Origin: Candidatus Woesearchaeota archaeon
GTDB taxonomy: Archaea; Nanobdellota; Nanobdellia; Woesearchaeales; GW2011-AR4
Assembly (NCBI GenBank): GCA_002686855.1
Contig: NYYQ01000064.1
Span: forward strand, 1 to 39,781
Direction: 5' to 3'
DNA length: 39,781 nt
The notes below the pieces were generated by a model that worked only from the letters and a program-made list of their open reading frames with translations, was not told where the DNA came from and did not search any database. Both the position numbers and the translations under genes were made by a program. Position 1 is the first letter of the stretch; each line of letters begins with the position of its first letter. Below are positions 13,724-30,561 of the stretch, piece by piece.

Positions 13724-14419
13724 ATGGGAAGACCAAAAAGACAAAGGAAAAAATTTTCAAAGCCAACCCATCCTTGGCAGAAAGAAAGAATTTTAGCAGA
13801 AAAAGAACTGTTAAAAGACTACGGTCTAAGAAGAAAATATGAAATATGGAAGATGAGTTCAATCCTGAAAAATTTCACAAACCAGGCCAAAAATCTTATC
13901 ACTATAAAAACCCAGCAATCAGATAAAGAACGGGATCAGTTGCTTACAAAACTTTCTTCCCTTAAATTAATAGAATCTAATGCTAAAATTGAAGATGTTT
14001 TATCCTTAACACTCAAAGATGTTATGGAAAGAAGATTGCAAACTTTGGTCTATAAAAAAAACCTAGCAAAAAGTCTTACTCAAGCACGGCAATTTATTGT
14101 TCACGAACATGTCGCTATAGGTGATAAAACTATAACAGCGCCATCTTACCTTGTTCACTTAAATGAAGAAAATAATATACAATTTACCCAGAGTTCTGCT
14201 TTTGCTGATTCTAACCACCCAGAAAGATTAGTGCAAGAAAAGAAGTCAGAAGTAAAAAAAGAAAAATCTGATAAAAAGCAAACAGCAAAAGAAACAGAGA
14301 AAGAAGAAACAAAAAAAGATTCAAAACCTAAGAAACAGGCTAAGAAAGAAAAACCAGTAGAAGAGAAAAAAGAAGATAAAATATCTAAAAACGAAAAAAC
14401 CGAGACTAAAGAAAAATGA
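13724..14419 (+). CDS. rps4: 30S ribosomal protein uS4 with a ~60-aa KE-rich tail
   Basis: [23 protein letters not shown]...[15 protein letters not shown]. The tail starts at ~aa 171. Confidence 0.92.
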
Positions 14420-14817
14420 GAGCACCAACCAATGAAAGATGGGGAATTGCGCATATTTATGCATCATACAACAATACAATAATCCATATAACTGACATTA
14501 CCGGAACAGAGACAATAAGCAAAGCTTCTGGTGGAATGGTTGTAAAAAGTGATAGGATGGAATCTTCTCCTACTGCTGCAATGATTGCTGCTAAAAGAGC
14601 TGCAGAAACAGCCAAAGAAAAGGGGATAAATTCTATCCATGTTAAGATACGGGCAGCAGGCGGGCATAACCGCCCTACCAGTCCAGGACCGGGAGCTCAA
14701 GCTGCTATAAGGGCCTTATCAAGAGTGGGTTTGAGAATAGGAATTATTGAAGATGTTACTCCTCTTCCGCATGATGGCTGCAGAAAAAAAGGCGGTCGCA
14801 GAGGACGCAGAGTTTAA
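14416..14817 (+). CDS. rps11: 30S ribosomal protein uS11
   Basis: [21 protein letters not shown]...[33 protein letters not shown]. It overlaps rps4 by ATGA. Confidence 0.93.
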
Positions 14818-14833
14818 TTGGAGGTTTTAAAAA

Positions 14834-15625
14834 ATGGAAACAAGAGTATTGGAAAATAACAAAAATATGGGAAAACTTTCATTTATAATTAAAGATACAA
14901 ATGCTGCCTTTGTAAATACCTTAAGAAGAATTATGATGGATGAAGTTCCTACAATGGCTATTGAAGATGTAGAATTCAGAAAAAACAATTCCATACTATA
15001 TGATGAAATGATAGCGCACAGACTTGGCTTAACACCGCTAAAAACAGATTTAAAATCATATAACCTGCCAGAGAATTGCAAATGTGAAGGAGAAGGTTGT
15101 GCAAGATGCCAGCTTAAGCTTACACTTAAAGTTTCAGCATCAGGTACTGTTTGTGCTTCTGAACTCAAAAGTAAAGATCCTGCTGTTAAGCCTGTCCATC
15201 CAAAAATGCCCATCGTGAAGCTGTTGAAAAACCAGTCATTAGAGCTTGAAGCTACTGCTGTTCTGGGAAAAGGAAAGTTACACTCAAAATGGAGTCCATG
15301 CCTTGCTTATTACAAATATAAGCCTTCAATAGAAATAGGGAATGTAAAGAATCCTGAAGAAATAGTAGAAGCAACTCATGGAAATATTTTTGAAATAAAA
15401 AACGGAAAACTGGAAGTCATTAAGGATAATTTGTTTAAGTATGATCTTGCAGGTGTTGTAGAAGATGCATCAAAAGGAGAAGTTAAGGTTAAGCGCGATA
15501 ATGATTTTATTTTTTATATCGAATCATGGGGACAGTTAACCTGCAAGGAAATTTTAAATCATGCAATGGATATTTTCAATAAAACTTTTGACGAATTTAA
15601 TGAAAAAATAAAGAAGGCAAAATAA
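14834..15625 (+). CDS. rpoD: RNA polymerase subunit Rpo3 (D)
   Basis: FVNTLRRIMMDEVPTMAIEDVEF...AHRLGLTPL. Cys cluster CKCEGEGCARCQ. It sits in the conserved position after uS11. Confidence 0.9.
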   Translation: METRVLENNKNMGKLSFIIKDTNAAFVNTLRRIMMDEVPTMAIEDVEFRKNNSILYDEMIAHRLGLTPLKTDLKSYNLPENCKCEGEGCARCQLKLTLKVSASGTVCASELKSKDPAVKPVHPKMPIVKLLKNQSLELEATAVLGKGKLHSKWSPCLAYYKYKPSIEIGNVKNPEEIVEATHGNIFEIKNGKLEVIKDNLFKYDLAGVVEDASKGEVKVKRDNDFIFYIESWGQLTCKEILNHAMDIFNKTFDEFNEKIKKAK

Positions 15626-15655
15626 TCATTATTTATCCTTCGCAGATAAAATAAA

Positions 15656-16021
15656 ATGGTAAAACGAACAGGACCAACAAATACTTTATTAAGTGAATTA
15701 ATCTCAGAATTAAAGAAAAGAAGTAATGAGCAGTCTGTTAATTTATGGAAAAGAATAGCTCTTGATTTAGAAAAGCCCACAAGACAAAGAAGGGCCGTTA
15801 ACATATCAAGAATTAATAGATATACTAAAGAAAATGAAATAATAATTGTCCCTGGCAAGATTTTGGGTTCAGGAATTTTAAAGCACAAACTTACAATATC
15901 TGCTTACCAGTTTTCAGATCAGGCAAAAGAGAAAATAGAAAAATCAGGAGCTACTATAGTTCCTCTCTTGGAATTAAGCAAAGAAAAGCCAAATGGTAAA
16001 AGAATAAGAATCATAGGTTAA
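15656..16021 (+). CDS. rpl18e: 50S ribosomal protein eL18
   Basis: MVKRTGPTNTLLSELISEL...RRAVNISRINRYTKENEIIIVPGKILGSG. Confidence 0.9.
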   Translation: MVKRTGPTNTLLSELISELKKRSNEQSVNLWKRIALDLEKPTRQRRAVNISRINRYTKENEIIIVPGKILGSGILKHKLTISAYQFSDQAKEKIEKSGATIVPLLELSKEKPNGKRIRIIG

Positions 16022-16073
16022 AAAACAATGAAAATTAAAAATTTTCAAGCTTTAAATTTCGGAGAAATTTAAA

Positions 16074-16493
16074 ATGATAATAGATGCTAATAATATCATA
16101 TTGGGAAGATTAGGAACATATGCAGCTAAAAAAGCGCTGCTAGGAGAAAAAATAGATATTGTTAATTGCGAAAGCTGCATGATTACAGGAGATAAAAAAA
16201 GAGTTTTAGAGGATTACAAAAGAAAATTCAAGATGGGAACCCCAAAAAAAGGCCCATTTTTTTATAAAATGCCTGACAGGTTTGTTAAGAGATCTATTAG
16301 GGGAATGTTGCCTTACAAAAAAGAAAGGGGCAGAAATGCTTTTGATAACATAAAATGCCATATAGGGGTTCCTGAAAACCTTAAGGACCAAAAATTAGAG
16401 GCATTAAAGGAAGCGACTATAGAAAAACTTCCTAATCTAAAATACATAAGTGTGAAGGAAATCTGCAATCAAATGGGAGCTAATCTAAAATGA
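16074..16493 (+). CDS. rpl13: 50S ribosomal protein uL13
   Basis: IIDANNIILGRLGTYAAKKALLGEKIDIVNCE...SIRGMLPYK. Confidence 0.92.
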   Translation: MIIDANNIILGRLGTYAAKKALLGEKIDIVNCESCMITGDKKRVLEDYKRKFKMGTPKKGPFFYKMPDRFVKRSIRGMLPYKKERGRNAFDNIKCHIGVPENLKDQKLEALKEATIEKLPNLKYISVKEICNQMGANLK

Positions 16494-16891
16494 AGGTAAT
16501 AACATCATCCGGAAAAAGAAAAAGTGCAATTGCAAGAGCAACAGTAAAAGCAGGAAATGGAATAGTTAAAATAAACAACAAACTTTTGGATTTTTATGAG
16601 CCAAAACTTTCAAGATTAAAGCTAAAAGAGCCATTACTTCTTGCTGGTGATTTAGTACACAAAGTAAACATAAATGTTAATGTTGTTGGCGGAGGAATCT
16701 CATCCCAGGCAGATGCTTCTCGCTTAGCAATTGCAAAGGCACTTGTAGAGTATTCAAAAAGCGGCAAATTAAAAGAACAATTTTTAAATTACGACAGAAA
16801 CCTTATTGTTGCTGACGTAAGAAGAAAAGAGCCTGCAAAGCCAAATAGGCACGGACAAGCCAGGGCAAAAAGACAAAAATCATACAGATAA
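16490..16891 (+). CDS. rps9: 30S ribosomal protein uS9
   Basis: SGKRKSAIARATVKAGNG...GGGISSQADASRLAIAKAL...RRKEPAKPNRHGQARAKRQKSYR. It overlaps rpl13 by ATGA. Confidence 0.93.
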   Translation: MKVITSSGKRKSAIARATVKAGNGIVKINNKLLDFYEPKLSRLKLKEPLLLAGDLVHKVNINVNVVGGGISSQADASRLAIAKALVEYSKSGKLKEQFLNYDRNLIVADVRRKEPAKPNRHGQARAKRQKSYR

Positions 16892-16911
16892 ACTAAACAA
16901 GGTGAACAAAA

Positions 16912-17109
16912 ATGATAATACCTATAAGATGCTGGTCATGTGGAAAACCCATCGGACATTTATGGGAATCTTATTTAGAAAAACTTGAGAAGGGAGAAGA
17001 CAGAAAGAAAGTTTTAGATGAATCAGGTTTAGAAAGATACTGCTGCAGAGCAATATTTTTAGGACATATCGATCTAATTGACACAGTAGCGCAGTTTAAG
17101 AAATTTTAA
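16912..17109 (+). CDS. rpoN: RNA polymerase subunit Rpo10 (N)
   Basis: MIIPIRCWSCGKPIGHLWE...RYCCRAIFLGHIDLID. Confidence 0.92.
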   Translation: MIIPIRCWSCGKPIGHLWESYLEKLEKGEDRKKVLDESGLERYCCRAIFLGHIDLIDTVAQFKKF

Positions 17110-17119
17110 TTTTTAAAAA

Positions 17120-17575
17120 ATGGCACGAATGCATTCAAGGAAACATGGAAAGAGCGGCTCTACGAAGCCTCTAAAGAAATCTTTACCTGTATGGCTAAGA
17201 TACAAGCCAAAAGAAGCAGAACTTTTGATAGCTAAATTAGCAAAAGAAGGGAAAAATACCTCAGAAATAGGAATTATACTTAGAGACACCTATGGCATTC
17301 CTGACCTAAAACTTCTTTTTAAAAAAAAGCTCTCAAAGATATTAACAGAGAAAGGTGAAACATCAGAACTCCCAGACGACTTATTAGCTTTAATAAGAAG
17401 ATCTGTAGCAATAAGAAAGCACATGGAAACAAACAACAAAGATCAAACCGCAAAACGCGGTCTTAACCTGACAGAATCTAAGATAAAAAGACTGACAAAA
17501 TACTATAAGAAATCAGGAAAACTTGCCTCAGAATGGAAGTATGACCCGCAAAGGGCAGGATTCTTTACGAAATAG
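17120..17575 (+). CDS. rps15: 30S ribosomal protein uS15 (S13e type)
   Basis: MARMHSRKHGKSGSTKP...GIILRDTYGIPD...AIRKHMETNNKDQTAKRGL. Confidence 0.92.
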   Translation: MARMHSRKHGKSGSTKPLKKSLPVWLRYKPKEAELLIAKLAKEGKNTSEIGIILRDTYGIPDLKLLFKKKLSKILTEKGETSELPDDLLALIRRSVAIRKHMETNNKDQTAKRGLNLTESKIKRLTKYYKKSGKLASEWKYDPQRAGFFTK

Positions 17576-18488
17576 TTATCTGCTTTACCCTATCAACAAC
17601 TTCTTTGATTGTAATGTCTGGAGTAGAAGCTCCTGCAGTTACCCCAACTTTTTCTTTACCCTCAAACCACTCTTTCTGTAGCTGTTTTTTATCCTGAATA
17701 AAATGAGTCTCTACATTATATTCTCTGCATTTAGCAACTAACTCTTTGGAATTGCTGGAATTTTTCCCCCCAACAACAATCATGATATCTGCTTTTTTTG
17801 CAATCTCTTCTGTTTCAAGCTGTCTTTGCTTTGTGGGATTGCATATCGTATCAACAAAAACATATGGCTTTGACATATCATTAAGGCTTAGATGCAGCTC
17901 CTCAAATTTTTTATCTGTCAATTTATTAACTTTCTCTATCAACTTCCTATAACCTGATACTGACATTGTTGTCTGGGATATGAGAGCAGCTTTTTCAAAA
18001 TTATTTTTGTTTATATATTCAACAATGGAAGATGCATCCTCAGCACTTTCAACAATAAATGTGTTTTCTCCTTTTATGCAGTAGCTAGTCCCTATTGCTT
18101 CCGGATGATTTTTCTTGCCAAATAAAATAACTTCATAATTATTATTTTTTAATTTAATCGCAACATTATGAACTAAAGTTACTAATGGACATGTAGCATC
18201 ATTTAGAGTTGTGTTTTTACTTATGCCCTTTGCCTGCAATTGTGCATATGTTTTTCCTGGCTCACCATGGGCTCTTAACACAGTAACTGCTTTTTCTGGT
18301 ATCTCATCAACATTATCCGCAAATTCTATTCCTTTTTTCTTTAGATCATCTATGACACGATCATTATGCACAAGCTGCCCATACACATATGTTTTTCCAT
18401 CATTTTTAGATGCAACCTTTTTAGCTATATCTATTGCTCTCTTAACTCCAGAACAAAAACCTGCATTCTTTGCAACCATTATTTCCAT
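17565..18488 (-). CDS. ispH: 4-hydroxy-3-methylbut-2-enyl diphosphate reductase (IspH/LytB)
   Basis: Three cluster cysteines occur in GFCSGV, DATCPLV and DTICNPT. SSNSKEL motif is present. 307 aa. It overlaps the rps15 3' end by 11 nt (convergent). Confidence 0.9.
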   Translation of the reverse strand: MEIMVAKNAGFCSGVKRAIDIAKKVASKNDGKTYVYGQLVHNDRVIDDLKKKGIEFADNVDEIPEKAVTVLRAHGEPGKTYAQLQAKGISKNTTLNDATCPLVTLVHNVAIKLKNNNYEVILFGKKNHPEAIGTSYCIKGENTFIVESAEDASSIVEYINKNNFEKAALISQTTMSVSGYRKLIEKVNKLTDKKFEELHLSLNDMSKPYVFVDTICNPTKQRQLETEEIAKKADIMIVVGGKNSSNSKELVAKCREYNVETHFIQDKKQLQKEWFEGKEKVGVTAGASTPDITIKEVVDRVKQITIS

Positions 18489-18511
18489 AATATCTGGGGA
18501 AGAATATCGAT

Positions 18512-19360
18512 TTAAAAGGTTTTTGTCAGATAGACAAAAGGATATAAATCCTTAAGCTTGAAGTATGCTTCTCTTGCCGTATATATGCTGTCATACATTC
18601 CAAGTACTGTTGGTCCTGATCCCACCACCATAGAATTCAGAGCATCAAACTTTCTGAAATTTATTTTTATTTCCTTTACTATGCTATGTTTTTTTTCTAT
18701 TAAAGCATCAAAATCATTATGCATGTTTTCTGCTATTTTTTTTATGTCTTTTTTCCTAATTGCCCTGACAACCTCATTGACATTTTTTTTAGTTGCATCT
18801 TTTGCTTTTAATTTATCCAATTGCTTATAGGCCCAGGTTGTTGATACCTTTATTCCGGGATTTACCAGAACAACATTGATGGAAATAGGTTTTTTTACTG
18901 GTTTTATTTTATCCCCCATCCCTTCCACAACAGCGGTTTCTCCCGCAATAAAAAAAGGAACATCTGAACCTATTTTAGCTCCAATTTCTATAAGTTTCTT
19001 TTGATTGGTTTTAATACTCCATAATTTGTTTAATATCAATAATGCAGTTGCAGCATCTGAGCTTCCCCCGCCCAAACCAGCCGCCATTGGAATATTTTTT
19101 TCAATATTTATTTTAATGCCTTCTTTAATATTAAATTCATTTTTTAGAATCTCAGCTGCCTTATAAGCAAGATTATTCTTTCCTTCTAGATCTCTATTAT
19201 TACTTTCCACTATGATCTCATCTTCCTTTAGCTTCTCAAAAGAAACAAAATCATGTAACTTTACTAGTTGCATAACGGATTGTATAGTATGGTAACCGGA
19301 TTTTAGTCTCTTGCCTACTTTTAAATACAAATTGACCTTTGCATATGAGTTTACATCCAT
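18512..19360 (-). CDS. ispE: 4-diphosphocytidyl-2-C-methyl-D-erythritol kinase (IspE)
   Basis: AKVNLYLKVGKRLKSGYHTIQSV N-terminus, GHMP loop PMAAGLGGGSSDAATALL, and GSDVPFF. Confidence 0.88.
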   Translation of the reverse strand: MDVNSYAKVNLYLKVGKRLKSGYHTIQSVMQLVKLHDFVSFEKLKEDEIIVESNNRDLEGKNNLAYKAAEILKNEFNIKEGIKINIEKNIPMAAGLGGGSSDAATALLILNKLWSIKTNQKKLIEIGAKIGSDVPFFIAGETAVVEGMGDKIKPVKKPISINVVLVNPGIKVSTTWAYKQLDKLKAKDATKKNVNEVVRAIRKKDIKKIAENMHNDFDALIEKKHSIVKEIKINFRKFDALNSMVVGSGPTVLGMYDSIYTAREAYFKLKDLYPFVYLTKTF

Positions 19361-19416
19361 AAGAATTTTGATATGAGGTTATATATTAATGTTGCTTATT
19401 TATGCATAGTAGCAAA

Positions 19417-20562
19417 CTATTTTTTCAAGCTAACAGCAACAAAACACTGCATCCCTTTTCCTTTCCCAAACTCAGTCATCTCTTCTCCAGAAGTAGCTGC
19501 CATTCCAATGTTCTCTTTTTTTAATCTTAATAATTTTGAAAGTTTTGTTTTTATTTTTTCAATGTGTTCATCCATTCTTGGTTCTTTTCCTTCCAGCATT
19601 ATTGCTAAATTAGCAACCTTAAGCCCCTTATCCTTGACCTTCTCCAAAATAAACCCTAAATATTTTTTACTGTCAGTTATGCCTTTTTTGCACATATCAT
19701 CAGCATAAAAACCTAAACTTTTCATTCCAATAGCAGTGCTTAAAGCATTAAACAAAGCATGCAGCAAAACATCCCCATCAGAATCAGCATCAAAGCCATT
19801 CTTATCAGATATCTTAACCCCTCCAATTATCAAAGGCTTTTTCTCAGTGAATTTATGGCTGTCCAGACCAATACCAATCTTCGAAGCATTAACTAGCTTA
19901 TTTGCATAAGCCAAATCATGCTGGTCTGTTATCTTTATGTTCTCTCTTGAACAATAAATCATTTTAACCTGGCCACCCATCTTCTCAACTAGGCTTACAT
20001 CATCAGTGCCATAAAACTTATCCCTGTTTGCAATTTCAAAAGCTTTCTTAGCTAAAAAATACTTCATGGCTTGTGGTGTTTGTACTTGCCACAATAATTT
20101 TCTGTTAATAGTCTGCTTTACAAAACCCCCCTCAACAACTTTAATTGTGTCTTTTGCAGGAAAGCCTACAACAGCTGCGCCATATTTCTTTGTTGCTTTA
20201 ATAGTCTGATTTATTAAATCTTTATTAACAAAAGGATTAGCAGCATTATGCATCAAAACAATATCCTCATTATTTGCTTTTTCAATTGCCTTTATTCCAT
20301 TATAAACAGAATCCTGCCTCTCAACACCACCCTCAACAATATTTTTTACTTTATCAAATTTATTTGCTTTAACAACATCTTCAAATTTGTTTCCATCTTC
20401 TGGACTCACAACTAAAATTATTTGATTAATCTCCTTACACTCTTGAAAAACCTTAAGCGTATGAACTATTATCGGCTCTTTATTCAGCAAAAGAAATAAT
20501 TTATTTACATTCCTTTTCATCCGTTTTCCTTTCCCACCTGCAACAATAATTGCTATGTTCAT
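19417..20562 (-). CDS. ispDF: Bifunctional IspD/IspF (MEP cytidylyltransferase / MEcPP synthase)
   Basis: N-terminal IAIIVAGGKGKRM...LFLLLNKEPIIVHTL (IspD). C-terminal IGIGLDSHKF...ADSDGDVLLHAL (IspF). Confidence 0.88.
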   Translation of the reverse strand: MNIAIIVAGGKGKRMKRNVNKLFLLLNKEPIIVHTLKVFQECKEINQIILVVSPEDGNKFEDVVKANKFDKVKNIVEGGVERQDSVYNGIKAIEKANNEDIVLMHNAANPFVNKDLINQTIKATKKYGAAVVGFPAKDTIKVVEGGFVKQTINRKLLWQVQTPQAMKYFLAKKAFEIANRDKFYGTDDVSLVEKMGGQVKMIYCSRENIKITDQHDLAYANKLVNASKIGIGLDSHKFTEKKPLIIGGVKISDKNGFDADSDGDVLLHALFNALSTAIGMKSLGFYADDMCKKGITDSKKYLGFILEKVKDKGLKVANLAIMLEGKEPRMDEHIEKIKTKLSKLLRLKKENIGMAATSGEEMTEFGKGKGMQCFVAVSLKK

Positions 20563-20711
20563 TTTTAATAATTTTTTCTTTTAATTAATTATTATTTTTT
20601 CTTTTTATTGAATTATTTTTTAATTTATTTGTTGAATTATTTTTTTATAATTTTATTGATTGATTTCTATTTTTATTGGAATTGGCTTTTATTAATTTTT
20701 TATTGAAATCT

Positions 20712-21863
20712 TTAAAATTGTTTATTTTCTATAATCTTTGTTGTTTCCTCTTTTATTTTTTCATCAACATCTAATATTTGATTTAAATCAGGATTCTTAA
20801 TCAAATTATGTGAATCCATCATTTTTTTAATTATTTTTGAAATGTCTAAAAACTTTATTTTATCATCCAAAAAAGCATTAACAGCAATTTCATTTGCAGC
20901 GTTAAGTACAGCACCAATACTACCCCTAACCTTACCAGCATCATATGCATACTTTAAGCAAGGAAATCTGTCAAAATCAGGTTCCTCAAAACTCAAATTC
21001 CCAGCTTCCACTAAATTTAATCTTTTTGTGTTCATCTCAAACCTTTTAGGAAAACTCAATGCATATTGTATTGGCAACTTCATATCTGGGTTTCCTAATT
21101 GCGCAATAACAGAATTATCCTTGAACTCAACTAACGAGTGTATAATACTTTGAGGATGCACAACAACTTCAATATTCTCGTAACCAACACCATACAGCCA
21201 ATGCGCCTCCATAACCTCAAAGCCCTTATTCATCAATGTTGCAGAATCAATTGTAATCTTATTGCCCATTGCCCAAGTAGGATGTTTTAAAGCATCATTA
21301 GCAGTCACATTCTCTAACTGTTCTTTTGAATATTCTCTAAATGGCCCTCCAGAAGCAGTAATTACAATCCCACTAACATCTCCAATCTTTTCCCCATTAA
21401 TACATTGAAATATTGCGCTGTGCTCAGAATCAATTGGCATTAAATTTACATTATTTTTCTTGACTTCTTCCATTACAACAGAGCCTGCAGTAACTAAAGT
21501 TTCTTTATTAGCCAAAGCAATATTCTTCTTAGTCCGTATAGCCTCTATTGTAGGCCTAACACCAACAGAACCAACAAGAGAATTAACAACAGTATCTGTC
21601 TCATCCAATTTAGCAACTTTTATTATCCCATCAATTCCAGAATAAACACTGACATCAACTTCTTTTTTCAACAAATCTGCTTTCTCTTCATCCATAACAG
21701 CAACAGCTTCTGGCTTAAATTCATTAATTTGTTTTTTTAATAATTCTATATTACTATTTACAGTCAGACCAATTACTTTAAACTCGTTAGGATTATTTCT
21801 AACAATATCTAAAGTTTGAGTTCCTATGCTTCCTGTACTTCCTAAAATTGATAGTTTTTTCAT
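20712..21863 (-). CDS. dxr: 1-deoxy-D-xylulose 5-phosphate reductoisomerase (Dxr/IspC)
   Basis: KKLSILGSTGSIGTQTLDIV, LANKETLV, DSEHSAIFQC and HPTWAMGNKITIDSATLMNKGFEVMEAHWL. Confidence 0.92.
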   Translation of the reverse strand: MKKLSILGSTGSIGTQTLDIVRNNPNEFKVIGLTVNSNIELLKKQINEFKPEAVAVMDEEKADLLKKEVDVSVYSGIDGIIKVAKLDETDTVVNSLVGSVGVRPTIEAIRTKKNIALANKETLVTAGSVVMEEVKKNNVNLMPIDSEHSAIFQCINGEKIGDVSGIVITASGGPFREYSKEQLENVTANDALKHPTWAMGNKITIDSATLMNKGFEVMEAHWLYGVGYENIEVVVHPQSIIHSLVEFKDNSVIAQLGNPDMKLPIQYALSFPKRFEMNTKRLNLVEAGNLSFEEPDFDRFPCLKYAYDAGKVRGSIGAVLNAANEIAVNAFLDDKIKFLDISKIIKKMMDSHNLIKNPDLNQILDVDEKIKEETTKIIENKQF

Positions 21864-22909
21864 TTACCCAACTCCCCTATCTCTTTCATTAACCTATCAA
21901 CAACTTCTTCATTTTTCACTTTACCAACAATCTTACCATCTTTATACAACAAATTATCATCTCCAATACCACCTACAACTCCAACATCAGCTTTTTTACT
22001 CTCGCCAGGACCATTGACAGCGCAACCCATTATTGCAACATGTATTGGTTTTTTAATTCCTTCAGTTTTCTCCTCAATTTCCTCTGAAATCTTTATAACA
22101 TCAATATTTGTCCTTGCGCAAGTTGGACAAGAAGTTACCTCAACGCCATCTTTTCTTAATCCTAAAGCTCTAAGAATTCTTTTTCCAACTTTAACCTCTT
22201 CTTTAGGATCATCTGACAAAGAAACCCTTATTGTATCACCAATACCTTCCGAAAGCAAAACACCAATACCAATAGAATTTTTTATAGTTCCTGGAAACTT
22301 ACTTCCAGCCTCAGTAACTCCTAAATGCAATGGATAAACAGTTTTTTTAGCAAATAATCTATAAGCTTCTGCCATTCTTGGAACATCACTTGCTTTCAAA
22401 GAAACAACAGTATCATAAAAATCCAAATCTTCTAGAATTTTAACATGCCTTAATGCGCTTTCTACCATTGCTTCTGCGCTATAGCCATATTTCTCAAACA
22501 AATCCTTTTCCAAAGAACCCAGATTAACTCCCACTCTGATTGGAATTCCATGCTCTTTTGCAGCCGAAACCACTTGCTTTATTTTATCTTGACTGCCAAT
22601 ATTGCCCGGATTAATCCTCAGTTTATCAACATACTTTGCTGCTTCTAAAGCTATCCTATAATCAAAATGAATATCAGCAACTAAAGGCAAATTAATATTT
22701 TTCTTTATTTCTTTTAATGCTTTAGCAGATTCTATTGTTGGCGCACTTACTCTTATTATCTCGCATCCAATTTTCTCTAACTCATTAATCTGCTTTACAG
22801 TAACATCTACATCAGTAGTATCAGTATTAGTCATTGACTGGACGCTTATAGGCGCATCTCCACCAATATATGCCTTACCCACTCTAATTTTCTTAGATTT
22901 TCTCCCCAT
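21860..22909 (-). CDS. ispG: HMBPP synthase (IspG/GcpE), short bacterial two-domain form
   Basis: IGGDAPISVQSMTNTDTTDV, RINPGNIG, SCPTCARTNIDV and MGCAVNGPGE. It overlaps dxr by ATGA. Confidence 0.9.
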   Translation of the reverse strand: MGRKSKKIRVGKAYIGGDAPISVQSMTNTDTTDVDVTVKQINELEKIGCEIIRVSAPTIESAKALKEIKKNINLPLVADIHFDYRIALEAAKYVDKLRINPGNIGSQDKIKQVVSAAKEHGIPIRVGVNLGSLEKDLFEKYGYSAEAMVESALRHVKILEDLDFYDTVVSLKASDVPRMAEAYRLFAKKTVYPLHLGVTEAGSKFPGTIKNSIGIGVLLSEGIGDTIRVSLSDDPKEEVKVGKRILRALGLRKDGVEVTSCPTCARTNIDVIKISEEIEEKTEGIKKPIHVAIMGCAVNGPGESKKADVGVVGGIGDDNLLYKDGKIVGKVKNEEVVDRLMKEIGELGK

Positions 22910-22948
22910 ACTAGAAAGAGAATGAAAAACAGTTTAAAAATCTACCCT

Positions 22949-23380
22949 CTACTTTGTTAAATCCAGAATAGGTTTTCTTGCTATATAACTGCAATCTGAT
23001 TCATGCCAGAATTTTATTTTACTCTCTCCAAGCTTCCAACATAAGAAAATCTCTTTTCCTTCAAATATAGAATAAAAATCTATGATGCCAATCTCAAGGT
23101 CATTGATTATGCATCCCATGTCCTCTATCTTTTCTATGTTCGAATAAAATTCATATGATAGTTTGTGGAACTGTTTGTTTAATTTTGTAACTCTCCTTAA
23201 ATTATTATAATCATCATCATAAACCTCTATTTCAATGCTGCTCAATAAATCCAGTGCTTTATTGAGCTTTATTGTCCTCTTTAGAATTCTTCCAATACTT
23301 GGCAACATTTTCTCTGCTTCTGTAATAGTGAAATGTTTTTTTGTAAATTTTTGTTTTGTATTCTTGCTTGTTGCCATCAT
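22949..23380 (-). CDS. DUF2203-like protein, first gene of the MEP operon
   Basis: FTITEAEKMLPSIGRIL...GCIINDLEIGIIDFYSIFEGKEIFLCWKLGESKIKFWHE fits the DUF2203 pattern as I remember it. It lies 39 nt upstream of ispG on the same strand. A TATA-like TTTATAAA lies upstream. Confidence 0.6.
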   Translation of the reverse strand: MMATSKNTKQKFTKKHFTITEAEKMLPSIGRILKRTIKLNKALDLLSSIEIEVYDDDYNNLRRVTKLNKQFHKLSYEFYSNIEKIEDMGCIINDLEIGIIDFYSIFEGKEIFLCWKLGESKIKFWHESDCSYIARKPILDLTK

Positions 23381-23471
23381 TCCTCACATTAAATTAATTC
23401 TTTATAAATTTTTTGAAATGTTGTTTTTCCTAAAACAAATATTTAAATAAGACAAAAAATAAAATCAAGAA

Positions 23472-24383
23472 ATGAAACATACATTAAAGATAACTCTGCT
23501 ACTACTCTCTATTTTCTTCATAACCCAAGTCATTGGGCTAGCAATAACCAAAGAATACATTTCAATCAAGGAATTTGTTGATCCAGAAACAAACATAGTG
23601 ACTAAAGAAATCATCATTGAGGACTTACCTTATAATGTTGAAAGACCAGAAATTGAAGGGCCCTCTGCTATTCTATACATCTTCTTTGCAATTTTAATAG
23701 GCACTATTTTGCTTCTTATTTTAATTAAATTCAAAAAAATAAGCTTATGGAAGTTGTGGTTCTTTCTTGCGGTTTTCTCTACAATGGCAATTGCCTTCTC
23801 GGCTTTTATTCCGCAAACAATAGCAGCAATTTTAGCATTTATACTCGCAATATTAAAAATCTACAAGCCAACAACCATAACGCAAAATCTTACAGAGATA
23901 TTCATTTACGGAGGTCTAGCAGCAATTTTTGTTCCAATAATTAATATTTTTGCAGCATTTATGCTCCTCTTAATAATCTCCATCTATGATATAATTGCAG
24001 TTAGGCATACCAAACATATGGTAACTATGGCTAAATTCCAGACAAAAAGCAAGGTTTTTACAGGACTTATGATTCCATATCAAAAAAACGAAATACAAAC
24101 AACAAAAACAAAAGAAATCAAAGGAAAAGGAGCAAAGCTTGCAGTTCTTGGTGGTGGTGATATTGGCTTTCCTTTAATCTTTGCAGGAGTTGTAATGAAA
24201 AACCTAATGCTCACCAATCCAGAAATTATAGGTTTTCTAAAAACTTTAATTATCCCGTTTTTTGTAACTTTAGCCTTATTATTTTTATTGTTCAAAGCAA
24301 AACAAGATAAATTTTATCCTGCAATGCCTTACTTAACAATAGGATGTATTATTGGTTATTTAGTTGTTTTATTGTTGTTCTAG
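23472..24383 (+). CDS. Presenilin/signal-peptide-peptidase-like intramembrane aspartyl protease (archaeal PSH type)
   Basis: Polytopic protein. YD motif (SIYDIIAV), GxGD motif (LGGGDIGFP) and PAL-like motif (PAMPYL). Confidence 0.82.
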   Translation: MKHTLKITLLLLSIFFITQVIGLAITKEYISIKEFVDPETNIVTKEIIIEDLPYNVERPEIEGPSAILYIFFAILIGTILLLILIKFKKISLWKLWFFLAVFSTMAIAFSAFIPQTIAAILAFILAILKIYKPTTITQNLTEIFIYGGLAAIFVPIINIFAAFMLLLIISIYDIIAVRHTKHMVTMAKFQTKSKVFTGLMIPYQKNEIQTTKTKEIKGKGAKLAVLGGGDIGFPLIFAGVVMKNLMLTNPEIIGFLKTLIIPFFVTLALLFLLFKAKQDKFYPAMPYLTIGCIIGYLVVLLLF

Positions 24384-24390
24384 GATTATC

Positions 24391-25443
24391 TTAAGGCTCA
24401 TCCAGTCTAGTCTGCTTCTCCTCAATCATTTCGTTAATCTCTTCAGCTTTCTCTGCTACTTGTTTTTGATATTCCTGCACTCTTACACCCTCCTCTTTAG
24501 CATACTTATATAGTGTCTTTTGTCCTTGCTCAACAGCATAGCTTACTGGGTTTACAACCATTCCATCCTTTGCTGCTATAACCTGGCAATTTGTTTCTTT
24601 TTGTATTTCTCTTACCTCATATAAAGGGTCAGCCTTAAGGAAATTAATTCCAAAATGGGTTATAACAGCCAACCTTGGATTAACCCTTCTGATTATCTTG
24701 ACTGCATCTTCTTTGCATAATCCATGCTTTCCTTCATCTTTTTTTAAGTAAGGAACATTCAAAATCAAAACATTAGCGCCATCATATTGGTCTATTGCCT
24801 CAACACTATACATTGTGTCTCCAGTATAGGCCAAAGTATAATCAGGAGTTATAAACTTAAAGCCAATTGCATCTGGATCAGAATGCTTTGCCCCTATCGC
24901 TTCTATTTCAATATTATTTATCCCAACTCTTTTACCTTCTTCTAATACAATAAACTTTTCTAAAAAATCTCTATAATATTTTTGCAGAAATGGAGTATGA
25001 TGCGCACTTCCATTTATTACAGTATTATTAGCAACTAAAACTCCTTTCTTGTCAAAACCACCATAAGTCATAGCATCTATAACTGCATTGATGTCATTGC
25101 AATGATTGATGTGATTATGTGTTGCCAATAAAGCAGTGTTTGCCCTTAAGTTAACACCAGTTTCTTTAGCCATAACCAAAGCTCCAGGTCCAGGATCAAT
25201 ATGAAACTGGTCATCACCTACTTGCAACACTATCCCGCCAGAAGCCCTTACCTGCTTACCAACAACATAACTATCTCCACCAGTCCCAAGAAATATTATA
25301 TTTGATGTAATTCCAACCCCCAAAGTAGTTAAAATTAAAGCTAGATTATAAAGTTTTCTAAACAAAAACCCACAGAAATTAAAATTTCCTGGATTGCGAA
25401 AATCAAAAGGATTTTTACAAACCTTTAAAAAACCCCAAAACAT
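24391..25443 (-). CDS. Metallo-beta-lactamase-fold hydrolase (archaeal COG2248-like)
   Basis: IIFLGTGGDSYVVGKQVRASGGIVLQVGDDQFHIDPGPGALV and THNHINHCND. The ATG at 25443 would run through the SRP RNA promoter. The TTG at 25323, which has a TTTATAAT box ~25 nt upstream, is a more plausible start. Confidence 0.8.
   Translation of the reverse strand: MFWGFLKVCKNPFDFRNPGNFNFCGFLFRKLYNLALILTTLGVGITSNIIFLGTGGDSYVVGKQVRASGGIVLQVGDDQFHIDPGPGALVMAKETGVNLRANTALLATHNHINHCNDINAVIDAMTYGGFDKKGVLVANNTVINGSAHHTPFLQKYYRDFLEKFIVLEEGKRVGINNIEIEAIGAKHSDPDAIGFKFITPDYTLAYTGDTMYSVEAIDQYDGANVLILNVPYLKKDEGKHGLCKEDAVKIIRRVNPRLAVITHFGINFLKADPLYEVREIQKETNCQVIAAKDGMVVNPVSYAVEQGQKTLYKYAKEEGVRVQEYQKQVAEKAEEINEMIEEKQTRLDEP
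25424..25432 (+). promoter_or_regulatory. TATA box (TTTAAAAAA) for SRP RNA
   Basis: It is centred ~24 nt upstream of the inferred SRP RNA 5' end. Confidence 0.5.
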
Positions 25444-25451
25444 ACTCTAGA

Positions 25452-25770
25452 TGGGTGGACTAGGCTGGCGCGTTGGCCCTGCGCTGTAACTCTAAACGGG
25501 CCTTATGAGAGAGTCGAAGCTTGAAAAGAGGCATTTGTTTAGTTTAGTGGTCTTGGTTTCAACTGTGAGGTTCTGTCCTTTAGGATCATATCTTTTGGAA
25601 AACTGGTCACACGCTAAAATCGGAGATTCGCTATCTCTGGCGTGCCAGAGAGGATGGGAACATAGCAGCCATAACCTGCTGATATGGTGCTTAGAGGGTA
25701 GCGGAACTGAGGAGAAATCAAGGTAAGCTATTAAGCTTTACTTGTGTCGAATTTTAGGCATGTCCATCCA
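25452..25770 (+). ncRNA. Signal recognition particle RNA (archaeal 7S, ~319 nt)
   Basis: The 5' UGGGUGGAC pairs with the 3' GUCCAUCCA. Alu-domain words GGACUAGGCUGG and CUGUAACUC are present. Helix 8/5 words GGGAACAUAGCAGCC and CUGCUGAU are present. A T-run follows the 3' end. Confidence 0.85.
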
Positions 25771-25772
25771 CT

Positions 25773-26729
25773 TTATTTTCTAAAGTGTTCATAACCAGAA
25801 CTTAGCTTATATTTCTTCTTTCCATCTAACAAATAAATTCCTTTCTTTTTATCAACAATCTTTCCTATTACTCTATGATCAATTTTATTTAATAATGAAA
25901 TTTTTTTCTTTGGAATTGTAAACACCAATTCAAGGTAGTCTCCCATTGAATTATAATATTCTCTCCCAAATCCAAGCTTCTTCATATCCTGAACAACTTC
26001 TTTTGAAATCAAAAGTTTACTCTTGTCAATAACTGCTCCTGTTTTGCTTTCTTCGCATATATGCCTTACTTCTGATGTAAGTCCATCAGAATTATCCTGC
26101 ATTGCATTTACACCAATAGCAGACAATTTTCTTGCAGCATCTAACCTTGCTTTTGAATTAAGAAAATATTTAGTTGATTTGCCTTTAATGTTGCTTTTTA
26201 ATAGTCCCAAAGCAGCTGTTGTCCTTCCTATTTTTCCTGTAATGCATATCAAATCCCCAACCCGGGCATTTCCCCGTAAACATAGCATCTTTTTCTCAAC
26301 AAAACCAATTAATGTAATTGTTATAGACATTTCTTCAGAACTTGCAAGATTTCCTCCAATAATATCTACCTTATATTTTTTTGAAGCCTTGTTTATTCCA
26401 TCATACAACCTATCAACAAATTTAACAGAAATTTTTTTCGGCAAATTCAAAGAGACAAGCATGTATTTTGGAAAACCACCCATTGCAGCAATATCAGAAA
26501 CATTAGACTCAACAGCTAATTTTCCTAACTGTTCTGGCTTAAACCATTCAAATTTAAAATGAACCTTTTCTACTAAAGTATCTGTAGTCAACAGCATATA
26601 TTTTTTTTTATCAAACTTAATAACAGCGCAATCATCCCCAATACCTTTAACAACATCTTTGGAAAATAAGCTTATCTTTTTGCTTATCCTTTCTATTAAT
26701 TTCCTTTCCCCTAACTTAGATACTTTCAT
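25773..26729 (-). CDS. thiL: Thiamine-monophosphate kinase (ThiL, AIR-synthase-related fold)
   Basis: GERKLIERI...GIGDDCAVIKF...LLTTDTLVEKVHF...LAVESNVSDIAAMGGFPKYMLVSLNLP. Confidence 0.85.
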   Translation of the reverse strand: MKVSKLGERKLIERISKKISLFSKDVVKGIGDDCAVIKFDKKKYMLLTTDTLVEKVHFKFEWFKPEQLGKLAVESNVSDIAAMGGFPKYMLVSLNLPKKISVKFVDRLYDGINKASKKYKVDIIGGNLASSEEMSITITLIGFVEKKMLCLRGNARVGDLICITGKIGRTTAALGLLKSNIKGKSTKYFLNSKARLDAARKLSAIGVNAMQDNSDGLTSEVRHICEESKTGAVIDKSKLLISKEVVQDMKKLGFGREYYNSMGDYLELVFTIPKKKISLLNKIDHRVIGKIVDKKKGIYLLDGKKKYKLSSGYEHFRK

Positions 26730-26740
26730 TTTAGAATAAA

Positions 26741-27541
26741 TTATTTTTTACTAAACGAAATAACATTCAATGGCTTTTTTGAAAGTTTTACTGTAACTTT
26801 CTGTTCTGAGTCAAATCTATTTTCCTTGCCTGTAGAGTCAGCAATAATAACGCCTTTTCCAACCTCAAACTCTATCAAGACTTCCTCATTTTTACCCAAA
26901 ATCCCATTGACTAAGCTGCATTTTGCAGCTGTCCTGCCGCAATATGGCTCCCTTATCAAATATTCAAATTTATCAGAATACAGCGGTAAAGTTTTACCGC
27001 CAGCGCTTTTAATCCATGCATAACTTCCAGCAGCTGTTGAAACCAGTACTCCACTGCTTTTCTGCCTTTCCCTTTTGCCTTTTATGGTGAAGCCATAACG
27101 CGCAGTGTGGTATGCTTTTGCAGATGCCACATAAAATTCATTCAATGCAAGCTCAGAAATCTTCTTATCACCTACAAAAGCTTCAAGCCTGTGCAGTTTT
27201 TTTATTTCATAATCTCCTTTCAATATTCTTTTCAATTTTCTCTCAAAATCATTTTTGTTAGTTGCCATAAAAAATCCCTCTTTACATTTAGGGTCAGAAT
27301 TAACTCCTAACATTAACATTTTGTTAAAAATAAAATGAGAAGCCATTAAAAAAGTACCATCCCCGCCAACTGCTATAACTAACTCTTTATTTTGAACTAA
27401 CTTTTTGCTTAATTTTTCCCTAATTACATTTTTATAATTTATTTTATATTTTTTTAATATTTTCTGGACTAAATTTAATGTTAATTTCTCTGTTGTATTT
27501 CTTGGTTTTGTATAGACTATTAATATATTTTTTAGTTGCAT
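26741..27541 (-). CDS. nadK: NAD kinase
   Basis: LVIAVGGDGTFLMASH and LALNEFYV motifs. 266 aa. Confidence 0.85.
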   Translation of the reverse strand: MQLKNILIVYTKPRNTTEKLTLNLVQKILKKYKINYKNVIREKLSKKLVQNKELVIAVGGDGTFLMASHFIFNKMLMLGVNSDPKCKEGFFMATNKNDFERKLKRILKGDYEIKKLHRLEAFVGDKKISELALNEFYVASAKAYHTARYGFTIKGKRERQKSSGVLVSTAAGSYAWIKSAGGKTLPLYSDKFEYLIREPYCGRTAAKCSLVNGILGKNEEVLIEFEVGKGVIIADSTGKENRFDSEQKVTVKLSKKPLNVISFSKK

Positions 27542-27616
27542 GGAGAATTAATAACTTAAAAGCTTATTTAAATTTTTGTTTTTAAGGTTTGTTCTCTAAA
27601 AACTTAATCATCGCAA

Positions 27617-27721
27617 CTAAGCTTTCATTAACAGGACACTTAATCTTATATTCCTTACCCAACTCAACAAACCACCAACTAAACTTCCAATACCTCCGGC
27701 ACCTAGAATTATTATTTTCAT
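27617..27721 (-). pseudogene. 34-codon stub of a Rossmann-fold gene (ketopantoate-reductase-like N-terminus MKIIILGAGGIGSLVGGLL)
   Basis: Its ATG overlaps the panD stop (ATGA). The GxGxxG dinucleotide-binding start is followed by a premature stop. The remaining 75 nt to nadK are noncoding. Confidence 0.4.
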
Positions 27722-28068
27722 AGAAACTTCAAAAACTTATTGTTTTTATCAACCAGTATAATTTTTGGATTTATTTGTTTTTCACTTAATTCAAATCCCA
27801 TAATAATTATTTCTTCACTAGCTTTAATCAGATGAGCGGCAGCGCCATTCATACAAACAACTCCAGAGCCCTTTTTTCCTTTTATTACATATGTTTCTAA
27901 CCTTGCTCCAGAGGTATTGCTTGCAACCAGGACCTTTTCACCTGGCCACAATCCTGCTTTTTCTATCAAATCTTCATCAATTGTAATGCTGCCTGCATAA
28001 TTTATATCAGCTTCAGTTACCGTTGCCTTATGGATTTTTGATCTTATGAGCCATCTCATTTTTGACAT
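27718..28068 (-). CDS. panD: Aspartate 1-decarboxylase, pyruvoyl-dependent (bacterial PanD type)
   Basis: It is collinear with E. coli PanD as I recall it. KIHKATVTEADINYAGSITIDEDL carries the Gly-Ser self-cleavage site, followed by VCMNGAAAHL. Confidence 0.88.
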   Translation of the reverse strand: MSKMRWLIRSKIHKATVTEADINYAGSITIDEDLIEKAGLWPGEKVLVASNTSGARLETYVIKGKKGSGVVCMNGAAAHLIKASEEIIIMGFELSEKQINPKIILVDKNNKFLKFL

Positions 28069-28083
28069 TTCTAAAATATTGCA

Positions 28084-30561
28084 TTACTCTAAAAATATAG
28101 CAACCTTCCCAGGCTTTGCTTTCTTAGCCTTTCCCTGTGGATCATAAATATCTTTATCATTAACAGCATTTACAGTAACTTCTAAATCAATTTTCTTCTC
28201 TAAAATATTCTTGTTCTGCAAAAATATCTCTTTCTCGTTGGGTATAACATATAAATAAACCTTTTTAGGCTCTATCTTAACCAACTTTAAAACATTCCTT
28301 ATATCAGCAACCGTATTTTCTATTAATTGCTCTTCTTTTTCAATTTTTTCACTTACTTTATTTTTATCAAATTTAGGCCACTTAGCTAATGAAATAAATC
28401 CTTTATTTCCTAATTTTGACCACAACTCCTCACACAAATGCGGAGTAAAAGGCACCATTAATAAAATCAAATTTTCAAAAGCTTCTTTTGGAATTTTTTC
28501 CAAACTCCCTAAATAATCAACATAACTATACAAGTTAACAATAGCCTTATTAAATTCAAAATTATCAATATTCTCACTTACACTATTAATAGTCCTGTGC
28601 ATCTTATTTAACACACTATCATCTGCTTTAACCTTGTCAACCAGCTCATACATACTATGAATCCTATTAATAAACCTGTAAACTCCATTAACACCCTTGT
28701 CACTCCAGTCTAATTCTTTTTCAGGTGAAGCAGCAAATAGAATAAATAATCTGCCAGTATCAGGACCATACTTCTCTGTTATTTCTGAAGGAGCCACAAC
28801 ATTTCCCAAGCTTTTACTCATCTTTGCTCCATCTTTGATAACCATACCTTGGCATAATAACCTTGAAAAAGGCTCATCAATCTTATGTAATCCTAAATCC
28901 CTTAAGGCTTTTGTAAAGAATCTTGCATATAACAAATGCAATATAGCATGCTCTATGCCGCCAATATACTGGTTAACAGGCATCCAGTAATTTACACTTT
29001 TTTTGTCAAAAGGAAATTTACCTTCTTTTGGGCTGCAATACCTCATAAAATACCAGCTGCTATCAACGAAAGTGTCCATCGTATCAGTTTCTCTCCTTGC
29101 TTTACCCTTGCATTTTGGACATTTAGCATTTACAAACTCTTCAGAAGTTTCCAAAGGATTTCCTTTTCCAGTAAACTTAACATTTTTTGGCAATTTAACA
29201 GGCAGCTCTTCATAACGTATAGGAACAACACCGCATTCATCGCAATAAATTATTGGTATGGGTGTTCCCCAATATCTTTGCCTGGAAATTAGCCAGTCTC
29301 TTAATCTATACCTTATAGTTCTCTTACCTTGTCCTTTTTCTTCTAAGTAATCCATGACTTTTTTAATCGCATCATTAATTTGCAACCCATTTAAGAAATC
29401 TGAGTTTATCATTACACCTCCTTCTTCTTGTACCTGTTCCTTCCTTGTTATCTCTGATTTATCTCCATCTGGACCTATTACAACCCGGGTAATGGGCAAA
29501 TTAAACTCTTTGGCAAATTCAAAGTCTCTTCTATCATGACCTGGAACACCCACAACAATCCCGGTTCCTACAGATATTAAGACAAAATCTGTTACCCATA
29601 TAGGCATTTTCTTATTTGAAAGTTGGTTAATGCAGTATAAGCCTGTAAACACCCCGGTCTTTTTTGTTCCTTCCTCTATTCTTTCTCTTTCAGTTTTTTT
29701 TCTTGAAGCTTCAACATAATCATCTATAGCGTTTCTTCCCTCTTCTGGAACTAGTTCTTTTAGTCTTTGCAGTTCTGGATGCTCAGGAGCTATCACAACA
29801 AAAGTTGCGCCAAAATTTGTATCTGGCCTTGTGGTGGAAACCATGAGCTCTATATCAGTTCCATCGACTTTATAGGTGATATCAATCCATTCCTTTTTTC
29901 CAATCCAATTTTCCTGCATTATTTTAACTTTATTTGGCCATTCGACTTTTTTTAAATCTTCAAGCAATTCATCTGAATATTGTGTTATCTTAAAGAACCA
30001 CTGTTCTAATGATTTTTCAACTACTTCGTTTTTACATCTCCAGCATTTTCCCCCCTCAACCTGCTCATTAGCCAAAACAGTATTGCAGCTATTACACCAA
30101 TTAACATAAGCTTCCTTCTTATAAGCCAGACCTTTCTCAAAAAACTTCAAAAAAATCCATTGATTCCATTTGTAGTAATCTTCAGAACAGGTTTGAATTT
30201 CTCTGCTCCAATCGTAGCTTAAACCCATGCTTTGTTGTTGTTTCTTGATAGCCTTAATATTATCCAAGGTCCATTTTTCTGGATCTACTTTATTCTTAAT
30301 AGCAGCATTCTCTGCCGGCATCCCAAAAGCATCATAACCCATCGGATATAGCACATTAAAGCCATTCATTCTTTTATATCTGGCTAAAGCATCTCCTATA
30401 GAATAGTTTCTTAAGTGTCCCATGTGCAAAAAGTTTGATGGATAGGGAAACATTTCTAAGCAATAGAATTTCTTTTTCTTACTACTCTTTTCTACTTTAA
30501 AGATATTCTCTTTCTCCCATTTTTTTTGCCATTTAGATGCAATCTTAGCTAAATTAACCAT
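28084..30561 (-). CDS. leuS: Leucyl-tRNA synthetase, bacterial-type architecture
   Basis: [80 protein letters not shown] and KMSKSLGN. It is collinear with E. coli LeuRS rather than the archaeal/eukaryotic type. Confidence 0.9.

Follow-up and report, generated by a model that had tools for sequence, protein, structure and literature searches.

A probable ancient, bacterial-derived gene cluster for steps 2-7 of the methylerythritol phosphate pathway in a marine Woesearchaeota archaeon

We analysed a stretch of 39,781 nt (the window) of contig NYYQ01000064.1 (GCA_002686855.1) from Candidatus Woesearchaeota archaeon, which carries genes of the 2-C-methyl-D-erythritol 4-phosphate (MEP) pathway to isopentenyl diphosphate (IPP) and dimethylallyl diphosphate (DMAPP). 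An initial annotation, made from the sequence, had placed a bacterial-type MEP operon of five minus-strand open reading frames (ORFs) in an archaeal gene neighbourhood, and the five ORFs were located exactly at the coordinates it gave. The cluster and the genes at its edges are arranged as follows:

17120-17575, plus strand: uS15, archaeal, convergent neighbour and one edge of the putative ancestral insertion site (NF006331, 195 bits; cut-off 154)
17565-18488, minus strand: ispH (lytB), 4-hydroxy-3-methylbut-2-enyl diphosphate (HMBPP) reductase, 307 aa, final gene of the cluster
18512-19360, minus strand: ispE, 4-diphosphocytidyl-2-C-methyl-D-erythritol (CDP-ME) kinase, 282 aa
19417-20562, minus strand: ispDF fusion, MEP cytidylyltransferase and 2-C-methyl-D-erythritol 2,4-cyclodiphosphate (MEcPP) synthase, 381 aa
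20563-20711, minus strand: dxr-ispDF spacer, 149 nt, AT-rich, degenerate 24-28-nt units
20712-21863, minus strand: dxr, 1-deoxy-D-xylulose 5-phosphate (DXP) reductoisomerase, 383 aa
21860-22909, minus strand: ispG (gcpE), HMBPP synthase, 349 aa, leading MEP gene of the cluster in the window's lineage
22949-23380, minus strand: DUF2203 gene, 39 nt upstream of ispG (PF09969, 2e-28)

The stop codon of ispG and the ATG of dxr share an ATGA, the coupling claimed for these two genes, which is read directly in the sequence. The 3' end of ispH and uS15 overlap convergently by 11 nt (17565-17575), an overlap that had also been reported and that follows from the coordinates. The intergenic gaps are 23 nt between ispE and ispH, 56 nt between ispDF and ispE and 149 nt between dxr and ispDF.

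Pfam E-values across the five MEP ORFs ranged from 1e-19 to 4e-151. In the hidden Markov model search that the initial annotation had suggested, all six activities (ispH, ispE, ispD, ispF, dxr, ispG) scored above the curated TIGRFAM/NCBIfam equivalog cut-offs. IspG matched PF04551 (503 bits, 4e-151), NF001540 (491 bits; cut-off 345) and TIGR00612 (441; cut-off 280). Dxr matched PF02670, PF08436 and PF13288, reached 562 bits on NF009114 (cut-off 461) and also exceeded the cut-off of TIGR00243. The fusion protein consists of an IspD domain (residues 3-224; PF01128, 2e-60; TIGR00453, 218 bits with a cut-off of 181) and an IspF domain (residues 228-379; PF02542 or YgbB, 9e-39; TIGR00151, 144 bits with a cut-off of 116). 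IspE has the N- and C-terminal GHMP kinase domains of Pfam and scored 252 bits on TIGR00154 (cut-off 139). A mevalonate-route GHMP kinase identity for this protein was rejected, mevalonate kinase models giving 28-40 bits compared to the 252 bits of TIGR00154. IspH matched PF02401 (LYTB; 6e-83) and TIGR00216 (259 bits; cut-off 188) and fell below the cut-off of several narrower NCBIfam subfamily models, as expected of a divergent lineage.

Each family motif quoted in the initial annotation was present in the translations. IspG carries SVQSMTNTDT and can be aligned over its full length to Aquifex GcpE (3noy), with the [4Fe-4S] ligands, defined as a CxxC pair, a further Cys and, seven residues after it, a Glu, kept in SCPTCAR and GCAVNGPGE. 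The best solved-structure match of Dxr was 6mh4 (4.5e-127), with the NADPH motif and the residues for metal and substrate kept in GSTGSIG, DSEHSAIFQ, HPTWAMG, NKGFEVMEA and HPQSIIHS. The IspD half of the fusion matched 5ddt best, and AGGKGKRM, GLDSHKF and DVLLHA, which cover the IspD P-loop and the Zn ligands of IspF (D, H, H), are all present in IspDF. In IspE, PMAAGLGGGSSDAA (GHMP motif II) aligns with the E. coli enzyme (1oj4), and PMxxGLGGGSS and GSDVPFF are kept. IspH, when compared to Aquifex 3dnf, retains the three cluster Cys (GFCSGV, DATCPLV, DTICNPT) together with HN, AHG, NHPE, QTT, SSNS and GASTP. The residue roles in the alignments of all six activities are those known from the solved structures. 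Together with the Pfam and equivalog results, these alignments identify the genes as MEP steps 2-7, as had been claimed, and the intact ORFs and motifs suggest that the enzymes are active.

The genes on both sides of the cluster are archaeal, in line with the initial description. Rfam models detected an archaeal RNase P RNA (10239-10585) and an archaeal SRP RNA (25453-25769), and the flanking protein-coding genes include those for the ribosomal proteins uL1, P0, P1, eS24, eS31, uS11, eL18, uL13, uS9 and uS15, the transcription proteins Rpo3, Rpo7, Rpo10 and Spt4, Sec61beta (10609-10779), NAC, a PIN protein and a THUMP methyltransferase. A presenilin-type protease, FtsZ and a TP_methylase/diphthine-synthase-like gene are also encoded. 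Ribosomal and transcription proteins restricted to archaea and eukaryotes occur on both sides of the cluster. No database record corresponded to the FtsZ ORF with its TTG start, gene callers having probably picked a different start. The closest IspG homologues (73-82% identity) are labelled Candidatus Woesearchaeota/Nanoarchaeota.

The window matched contigs from Tara Oceans marine metagenomes, and its proteins had exact copies on 15-21 contigs. An ENA Tara scaffold, JGI 3300020361 and Logan ERR599037 contigs covered positions 13813-28488 at 99.99-100% identity, and independent contigs crossed both junctions of the cluster, uS15/ispH and ispG/DUF2203/PSH/MBL, at 99.97-100% identity. A chimeric assembly, which the initial annotation had named as the way its claim could fail, is excluded by these ENA, JGI and Logan contigs, since contigs of different samples and assemblers span both junctions. 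Three public metagenome-assembled genomes (MAGs) with Woesearchaeota-like loci (L001, L005, L006; numbers with an L denote the loci compared) are titled 'uncultured Methanosarcinales archaeon', a label that is probably wrong given their 79-81% IspG identity and synteny as in the window.

Loci of relatives were viewed at +/-10 kb around the cluster and the genome of the window over about 50 kb. The order ispG-dxr-ispDF-ispE was common to most of eight Woesearchaeota genome loci, several of which end at contig breaks, and the ispDF fusion was kept in all Woesearchaeota loci examined. The ispH/uS15 junction was also found in L048, L061-L063, L064, L065 and L147. Many lineages carry the full locus Rpo7-Spt4-eS24-eS31-DUF7121-P1-P0-uL1, then dxs-ispG-dxr-ispDF-ispE-ispH, then uS15; these are L048 (a 311-kb groundwater contig), the marine MAG GCA_002688775.1 (a 200-kb contig), L064, L065, L069, L147, L149/150 and L151. 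In L153, dxs-ispG-dxr was present with a different upstream gene. The recurrence of the full arrangement across lineages indicates that the cluster was acquired ancestrally as a complete seven-step set between two ribosomal-protein loci.

In Woesearchaeota, hot spots for repeated insertion appear to exist within the cluster. Toxin-antitoxin modules or small ORFs lie between ispG and dxr in L064 (11057-11619) and L065 (11077-12086), and L149 has an insertion between dxs and ispG (6648-7457); the toxin-antitoxin types at these insertions are MazE/PemK and nucleotidyltransferase/HEPN.

In composition the MEP genes (GC 32-35%, GC3 22-28%) are equal to native genes, confirming the AT-richness that they had been said to share with the host, and their relative synonymous codon usage correlated with that of the other window genes at r=0.945. 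With the cluster and its uS15 junction shared by distant relatives, these values bear out the earlier proposal of an old, ameliorated acquisition. The MEP genes are under purifying selection, with a dN/dS versus relatives of about 0.05-0.26, values that are rough due to saturation of dS. The nearest non-archaeal sequences were from Clostridia and the Candidate Phyla Radiation (CPR) at about 55-61% identity. Single-gene phylogenies had been proposed for all five ORFs as a route to the donor clade; of these, quick neighbour-joining trees were run for IspG and Dxr, and in these trees, which carry no support values, all Woesearchaeota sequences grouped as a single clade within those of Clostridia and CPR, with the Roizmanbacteria IspG as sister of that clade.

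From these comparisons of sequence and gene order, the window very probably holds a functional cluster for steps 2-7 in a marine Woesearchaeota chromosome, inherited vertically from a single ancient bacterial transfer and since ameliorated. The transfer would have passed from bacteria to the ancestor of a Woesearchaeota clade, where the ancestral dxs-ispG-dxr-ispDF-ispE-ispH would have lodged between the uL1-P0-P1 operon and uS15, later reached full amelioration to host composition and gained host-type intergenic signals. In the marine subclade of the window a rearrangement may then have parted dxs from ispG. The enzymes of steps 2-7, namely Dxr, the IspD-IspF fusion, IspE and the [4Fe-4S] enzymes IspG and IspH, are predicted to yield IPP and DMAPP.

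The initial annotation had also stated that dxs, the gene for step 1, is not in the window, and tblastn with two Woesearchaeota Dxs proteins (E<=10) detected none there; dxs headed the ancestral cluster and was displaced or lost in the subclade. No dxs was found in the 10 kb to the right of the window, and a search of the subclade relatives' loci and the window flanks (tblastn, E<=1e-3) gave just distant matches to E1 alpha/beta in L001 and L003. The window and L001-L006 have PSH/MBL where other lineages have dxs-uL1, and the window additionally has DUF2203. To the left, the first 572 nt of the window contain 11/22-nt AT-rich repeats (at 141-203), and no recognisable gene was found in the left ~570 nt. 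All 18 public contigs with the window's uL1 end less than 600 nt upstream of uL1, a systematic assembly break that forms the left edge of the window. This break lies at the position of dxs in relatives, so dxs may lie just past it. A marine Dxs query against metagenomes matched first Woesearchaeota from groundwater, in which dxs is linked, and thereafter bacteria, and in seven divergent Dxs clusters inspected by genomic context dxs was linked to ispG in all seven. In the organism of the window dxs may therefore be beyond the systematic break, elsewhere in the genome or lost, and the simplest source of DXP would be an unlinked dxs. The window thus poses the question of whether dxs was relocated or lost in the marine subclade.

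Several points weigh against a functional cluster of single bacterial origin. No dxs was found in the window, in the 10 kb rightward or beside the cluster in six subclade relatives, which leaves the input of the pathway (step 1) unproven for the window's organism. No gene for a prenyl-diphosphate synthase, geranylgeranylglyceryl phosphate (GGGP) synthase, digeranylgeranylglyceryl phosphate (DGGGP) synthase or UbiA was found in the window, and Woesearchaeota have been described as being without GGGP and DGGGP synthases (Huang et al. 2021, PMC8421398). The neighbour-joining trees are unbootstrapped and were built from a small, search-biased sample, and the dS values (1.1-5) are saturated or beyond and were not computable in some pairs. 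An assembly or binning artefact, in which computation would have fused a bacterial MEP operon to archaeal sequence, is favoured only by how odd such genes seem a priori in an archaeon, along with the mislabelling of some related public records. Independent contigs cross both junctions, however, ispH and uS15 share 11 nt of sequence, their junction is kept in distant relatives on 120-311-kb contigs and the composition of the cluster is that of its flanks, making an artefact extremely improbable. The subclade cluster does appear to erode at its edges, with dxs gone from the ancestral site, no dxr between ispG and ispDF in L002 and ispE not followed by ispH in L001 and L003, as might be expected if an old transfer had left a non-functional relic that is now in neutral decay. 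We nevertheless consider such a relic very unlikely. The five ORFs are full length, with all catalytic and cluster-ligand motifs intact, dN/dS versus relatives is low (about 0.05-0.26) and amino-acid identity has held at 63-81% (63% being IspH versus L061) despite saturated synonymous sites. A pseudogenised relic was ruled out by the combination of intact motifs, compared to solved structures, and dN/dS.

Two further alternatives accept the enzymes and concern the input and output of the pathway. The marine subclade may truly have lost dxs although purifying selection still preserves steps 2-7. Its DXP would then be of non-canonical origin, for instance taken up from a host or partner cell, formed by a 2-oxoacid dehydrogenase E1 acting promiscuously or derived from a methylthio-sugar salvage shunt. 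Among the matches listed, every Woesearchaeota dxs (nine protein clusters plus L048 and L069) was directly upstream of ispG and none was unlinked; the slot holds PSH/MBL in the window and L001-L006 with no dxs remnant found; one of the best 120 Dxs clusters was of Tara source, compared to no fewer than four IspG clusters of Tara source that are close to the window; and E1 alpha/beta genes lie beside the MEP cluster in L001 and L003. However, the view covers about 50 kb of the window genome and +/-10 kb of the relatives, the Dxs matches are the best 120, and all 18 uL1 contigs break exactly where relatives have dxs. Purifying selection on the five genes is most simply explained by an ordinary unlinked dxs, and dxs is listed among the gains of the MEP-bearing subgroup (Huang et al. 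2021, PMC8421398). Both a true loss and a non-canonical DXP source appear unlikely. A use of the products outside membrane lipids, which the initial annotation had proposed as their destination, is easier to entertain: the pathway may work and feed polyprenyl or dolichyl phosphate carriers or small isoprenoids, with membrane lipids taken from a host. The reported lack of GGGP and DGGGP synthases in Woesearchaeota (Huang et al. 2021), the window's lack of a lipid prenyltransferase, the lipase/acyltransferase-like and MprF-C-like genes nearby and the bacterial fatty-acid genes that adjoin the cluster in relatives all fit this use. A UbiA-family prenyltransferase has, however, been reported near the MEP genes of some Woesearchaeota (Castelle et al. 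2021, PMC8204110), and absence from incomplete MAGs is weak evidence; we hold this use to be a genuine but somewhat doubtful possibility. Under the preferred reading, of a functional and vertically inherited steps 2-7 cluster, IPP and DMAPP would be used for archaeal lipids and/or polyprenol carriers. No mevalonate-route gene (HMG-CoA reductase, mevalonate kinase, IP kinase etc.) was found in the window, and Woesearchaeota genomes are reported to hold the MEP route alone (Huang et al. 2021, PMC8421398).

Genes with possible roles in lipid metabolism were observed around the cluster in the window and in relatives. An MprF C-terminal-like protein (LPG_synthase_C) is encoded in the window at 33286-34200 (minus strand), and just right of the window (L057, 7254-9788) are genes for an LCAT/PGAP1-like lipase/acyltransferase of 844 aa and a hydrolase of 542 aa. 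These genes are candidates for lipid modification or scavenging and bear on the source of the membrane. In L001 (15101-19064), L003 (9577-13416) and L007 (8592-9716), the genes directly beside the MEP genes encode a FabI-like enoyl-ACP reductase, 2-oxoacid dehydrogenase E1 alpha/beta with a lipoyl E2 and a FabD-like acyltransferase. In L001 and L003 the Fab/E1 genes occupy the place of ispH. The presence of FabD-like, FabI-like and E1 alpha/beta genes beside the relatives' clusters matches published reports on Woesearchaeota.

Among bacteria, the nearest non-archaeal homologues were from Clostridia for both IspG (55-61% identity) and Dxr (50-57%), and the best structure matches of Dxr and IspD (6mh4 and 5ddt) are presumably Firmicutes proteins. 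In the Clostridia loci, however, just dxr and ispG are adjacent, separated by a gene of about 1 kb and in the order opposite to that of the window; the other MEP genes were not within the +/-10 kb loci and an ispD/ispF fusion was not seen. Two CPR/Patescibacteria loci (L046, 123-4042; L047, 5322-11028) have a compact ispH-dxr-ispD-ispF-ispE-ispG cluster, in which the inner order dxr-ispD-ispF-ispE is that of the window, whereas the outer genes ispH and ispG have traded places and ispD and ispF are unfused. Identities of IspD, IspF, IspE and IspH between these loci and the window are low (29-46%). For ispDF, a link to CPR was published by Huang et al. (2021, PMC8421398), as was one for a single MEP enzyme by Hoshino & Gaucher (2018). 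A Dxs cluster labelled Nomurabacteria (P0212) was 77% identical to Woesearchaeota Dxs, a value that reflects either a very recent exchange or mis-binning. The bifunctional IspDF of Campylobacter jejuni and its relatives (1w55, 8xhu) has the same IspD-then-IspF architecture and aligned over residues 4-380, but the window protein scored 261 bits on the curated bifunctional IspDF family NF006899 (cut-off 417) and is not a member. Orthology of its fusion with the proteobacterial IspDF is therefore improbable. The Woesearchaeota fusion may have arisen from adjacent ispD and ispF genes, as in the CPR clusters.

A bacterial MEP pathway in Woesearchaeota is already known and has been described since 2018. 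Castelle & Banfield (2018) are cited for the pathway in DPANN/Woesearchaeota and for a transfer from Firmicutes, and Hoshino & Gaucher (2018) found that DPANN MEP enzymes cluster with those of CPR/FCB and attributed this to horizontal gene transfer. In 52 Woesearchaeota genomes that form a monophyletic clade, Castelle et al. (2021, PMC8204110) found the MEP genes co-located, with UbiA and lipid genes of bacterial type close by. Huang et al. (2021, PMC8421398) distinguished subgroups F and J, described the fused ispD/F and placed dxr and ispG nearest Firmicutes and ispD/F nearest Nealsonbacteria. In 2024, a study in mBio of MAGs from oxygen-deficient zones (PMC10936187) found the MEP pathway together with Fab genes in marine Woesearchaeota. 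The cluster of the window resembles the published one in lineage, co-located genes, the ispDF fusion and a Firmicutes/CPR-like affinity; it differs by having no dxs at its head, with DUF2203/PSH/MBL instead, which is no difference in kind. The insertion site between uL1 and uS15 was not found explicitly stated in those papers on Woesearchaeota MEP genes that were accessible. The additions made here are modest and consist of the explicit insertion site, the displacement or loss of dxs in the marine subclade and the host-type repeat spacer within the cluster. Synthesis of IPP and DMAPP by the bacterial pathway in an archaeon would cross the 'lipid divide' and bears on models of membrane evolution and of DPANN symbiosis, a point already argued in the literature for Woesearchaeota. 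The window provides a clean, multiply assembled marine example of a thoroughly domesticated transferred operon, the domestication being shown by the overlap with a ribosomal gene, the host codon usage and the host-type spacers.

The spacer within the cluster had been described as sharing a peculiar TTATTGA motif with the host, and this was upheld. The repeat TCAATAAAA occurs in 11 copies in the window compared to 3.4 expected, a count reached in none of 100 shuffles. Three of these copies lie in the dxr-ispDF spacer (20563-20711), which also has, in sense orientation, four copies of the CAATAAA core, the counterpart of TTATTGA, and an A-rich sense strand, and similar arrays are present in three other spacers. 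Tandem Repeats Finder detected degenerate 24-28-nt AT-rich arrays at 6556-6741, 8600-8699, 20562-20676 and 35877-35926. Intergenic DNA shows a 2.7-fold enrichment of the CAATAAA core, and in the spacer clusters this core faces the next downstream gene (P1, eS31, PIN, ispDF and nitroreductase). The motif was also enriched in other Woesearchaeota loci and not in the Clostridia loci, and it is possibly a lineage-specific promoter-proximal or regulatory element. Its orientation and intergenic enrichment point to the dxr-ispDF spacer as a putative internal promoter of host type for ispDF-ispE-ispH. Alignment of the spacers of the window and relatives gave just low-complexity similarity and a short shared AATAATTCAAT[A/T]AAAA segment, indicating a class of spacer and not one conserved element. 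A canonical TTTATAAA box was found at 23401-23408, 21-28 nt before the DUF2203 ATG. DUF2203 was absent from the position upstream of ispG in all relatives examined; it may have been recruited into the operon after the displacement of dxs and may be co-transcribed with ispG-dxr. Scans with bacterial models, which say little about an archaeon, were at chance level both for sigma-70 promoters (30 compared to 29.6 expected) and for intrinsic terminators (3 compared to 2.9).

Other genes of the window also have unusual features. P0 (1516-3084, plus strand) is 522 aa long compared to 282-421 aa in relatives, the excess being a low-complexity C-terminal extension of ~230 aa rich in K, E and P, with 21-39-nt repeats in the coding sequence (e.g., 2926-3015). 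Leucyl-tRNA synthetase (LeuRS; 28084-30561, minus strand) scored 953 bits on the bacterial-type model TIGR00396 compared to 263 on the archaeal-type model. Two further bacterial-looking genes lie near the MEP cluster on the minus strand, PanD (27718-28068), a pyruvoyl-type aspartate decarboxylase, and ThiL (25773-26729), a thiamine-phosphate kinase, an enzyme that makes the cofactor of Dxs. A free-standing LAGLIDADG-domain ORF (34315-35214, minus strand; 299 aa) has the lowest GC of the window (25%), and an intein-containing DNA ligase is encoded just past the right end (L057, 1808-4579). Finally, four ORFs had no Pfam or credible NCBIfam match (30779-32800, plus strand, 673 aa; 4541-5311, minus strand, 256 aa; 5600-6361, plus strand, 253 aa; 35343-35852, plus strand, 169 aa), and all four were identical in independent assemblies.

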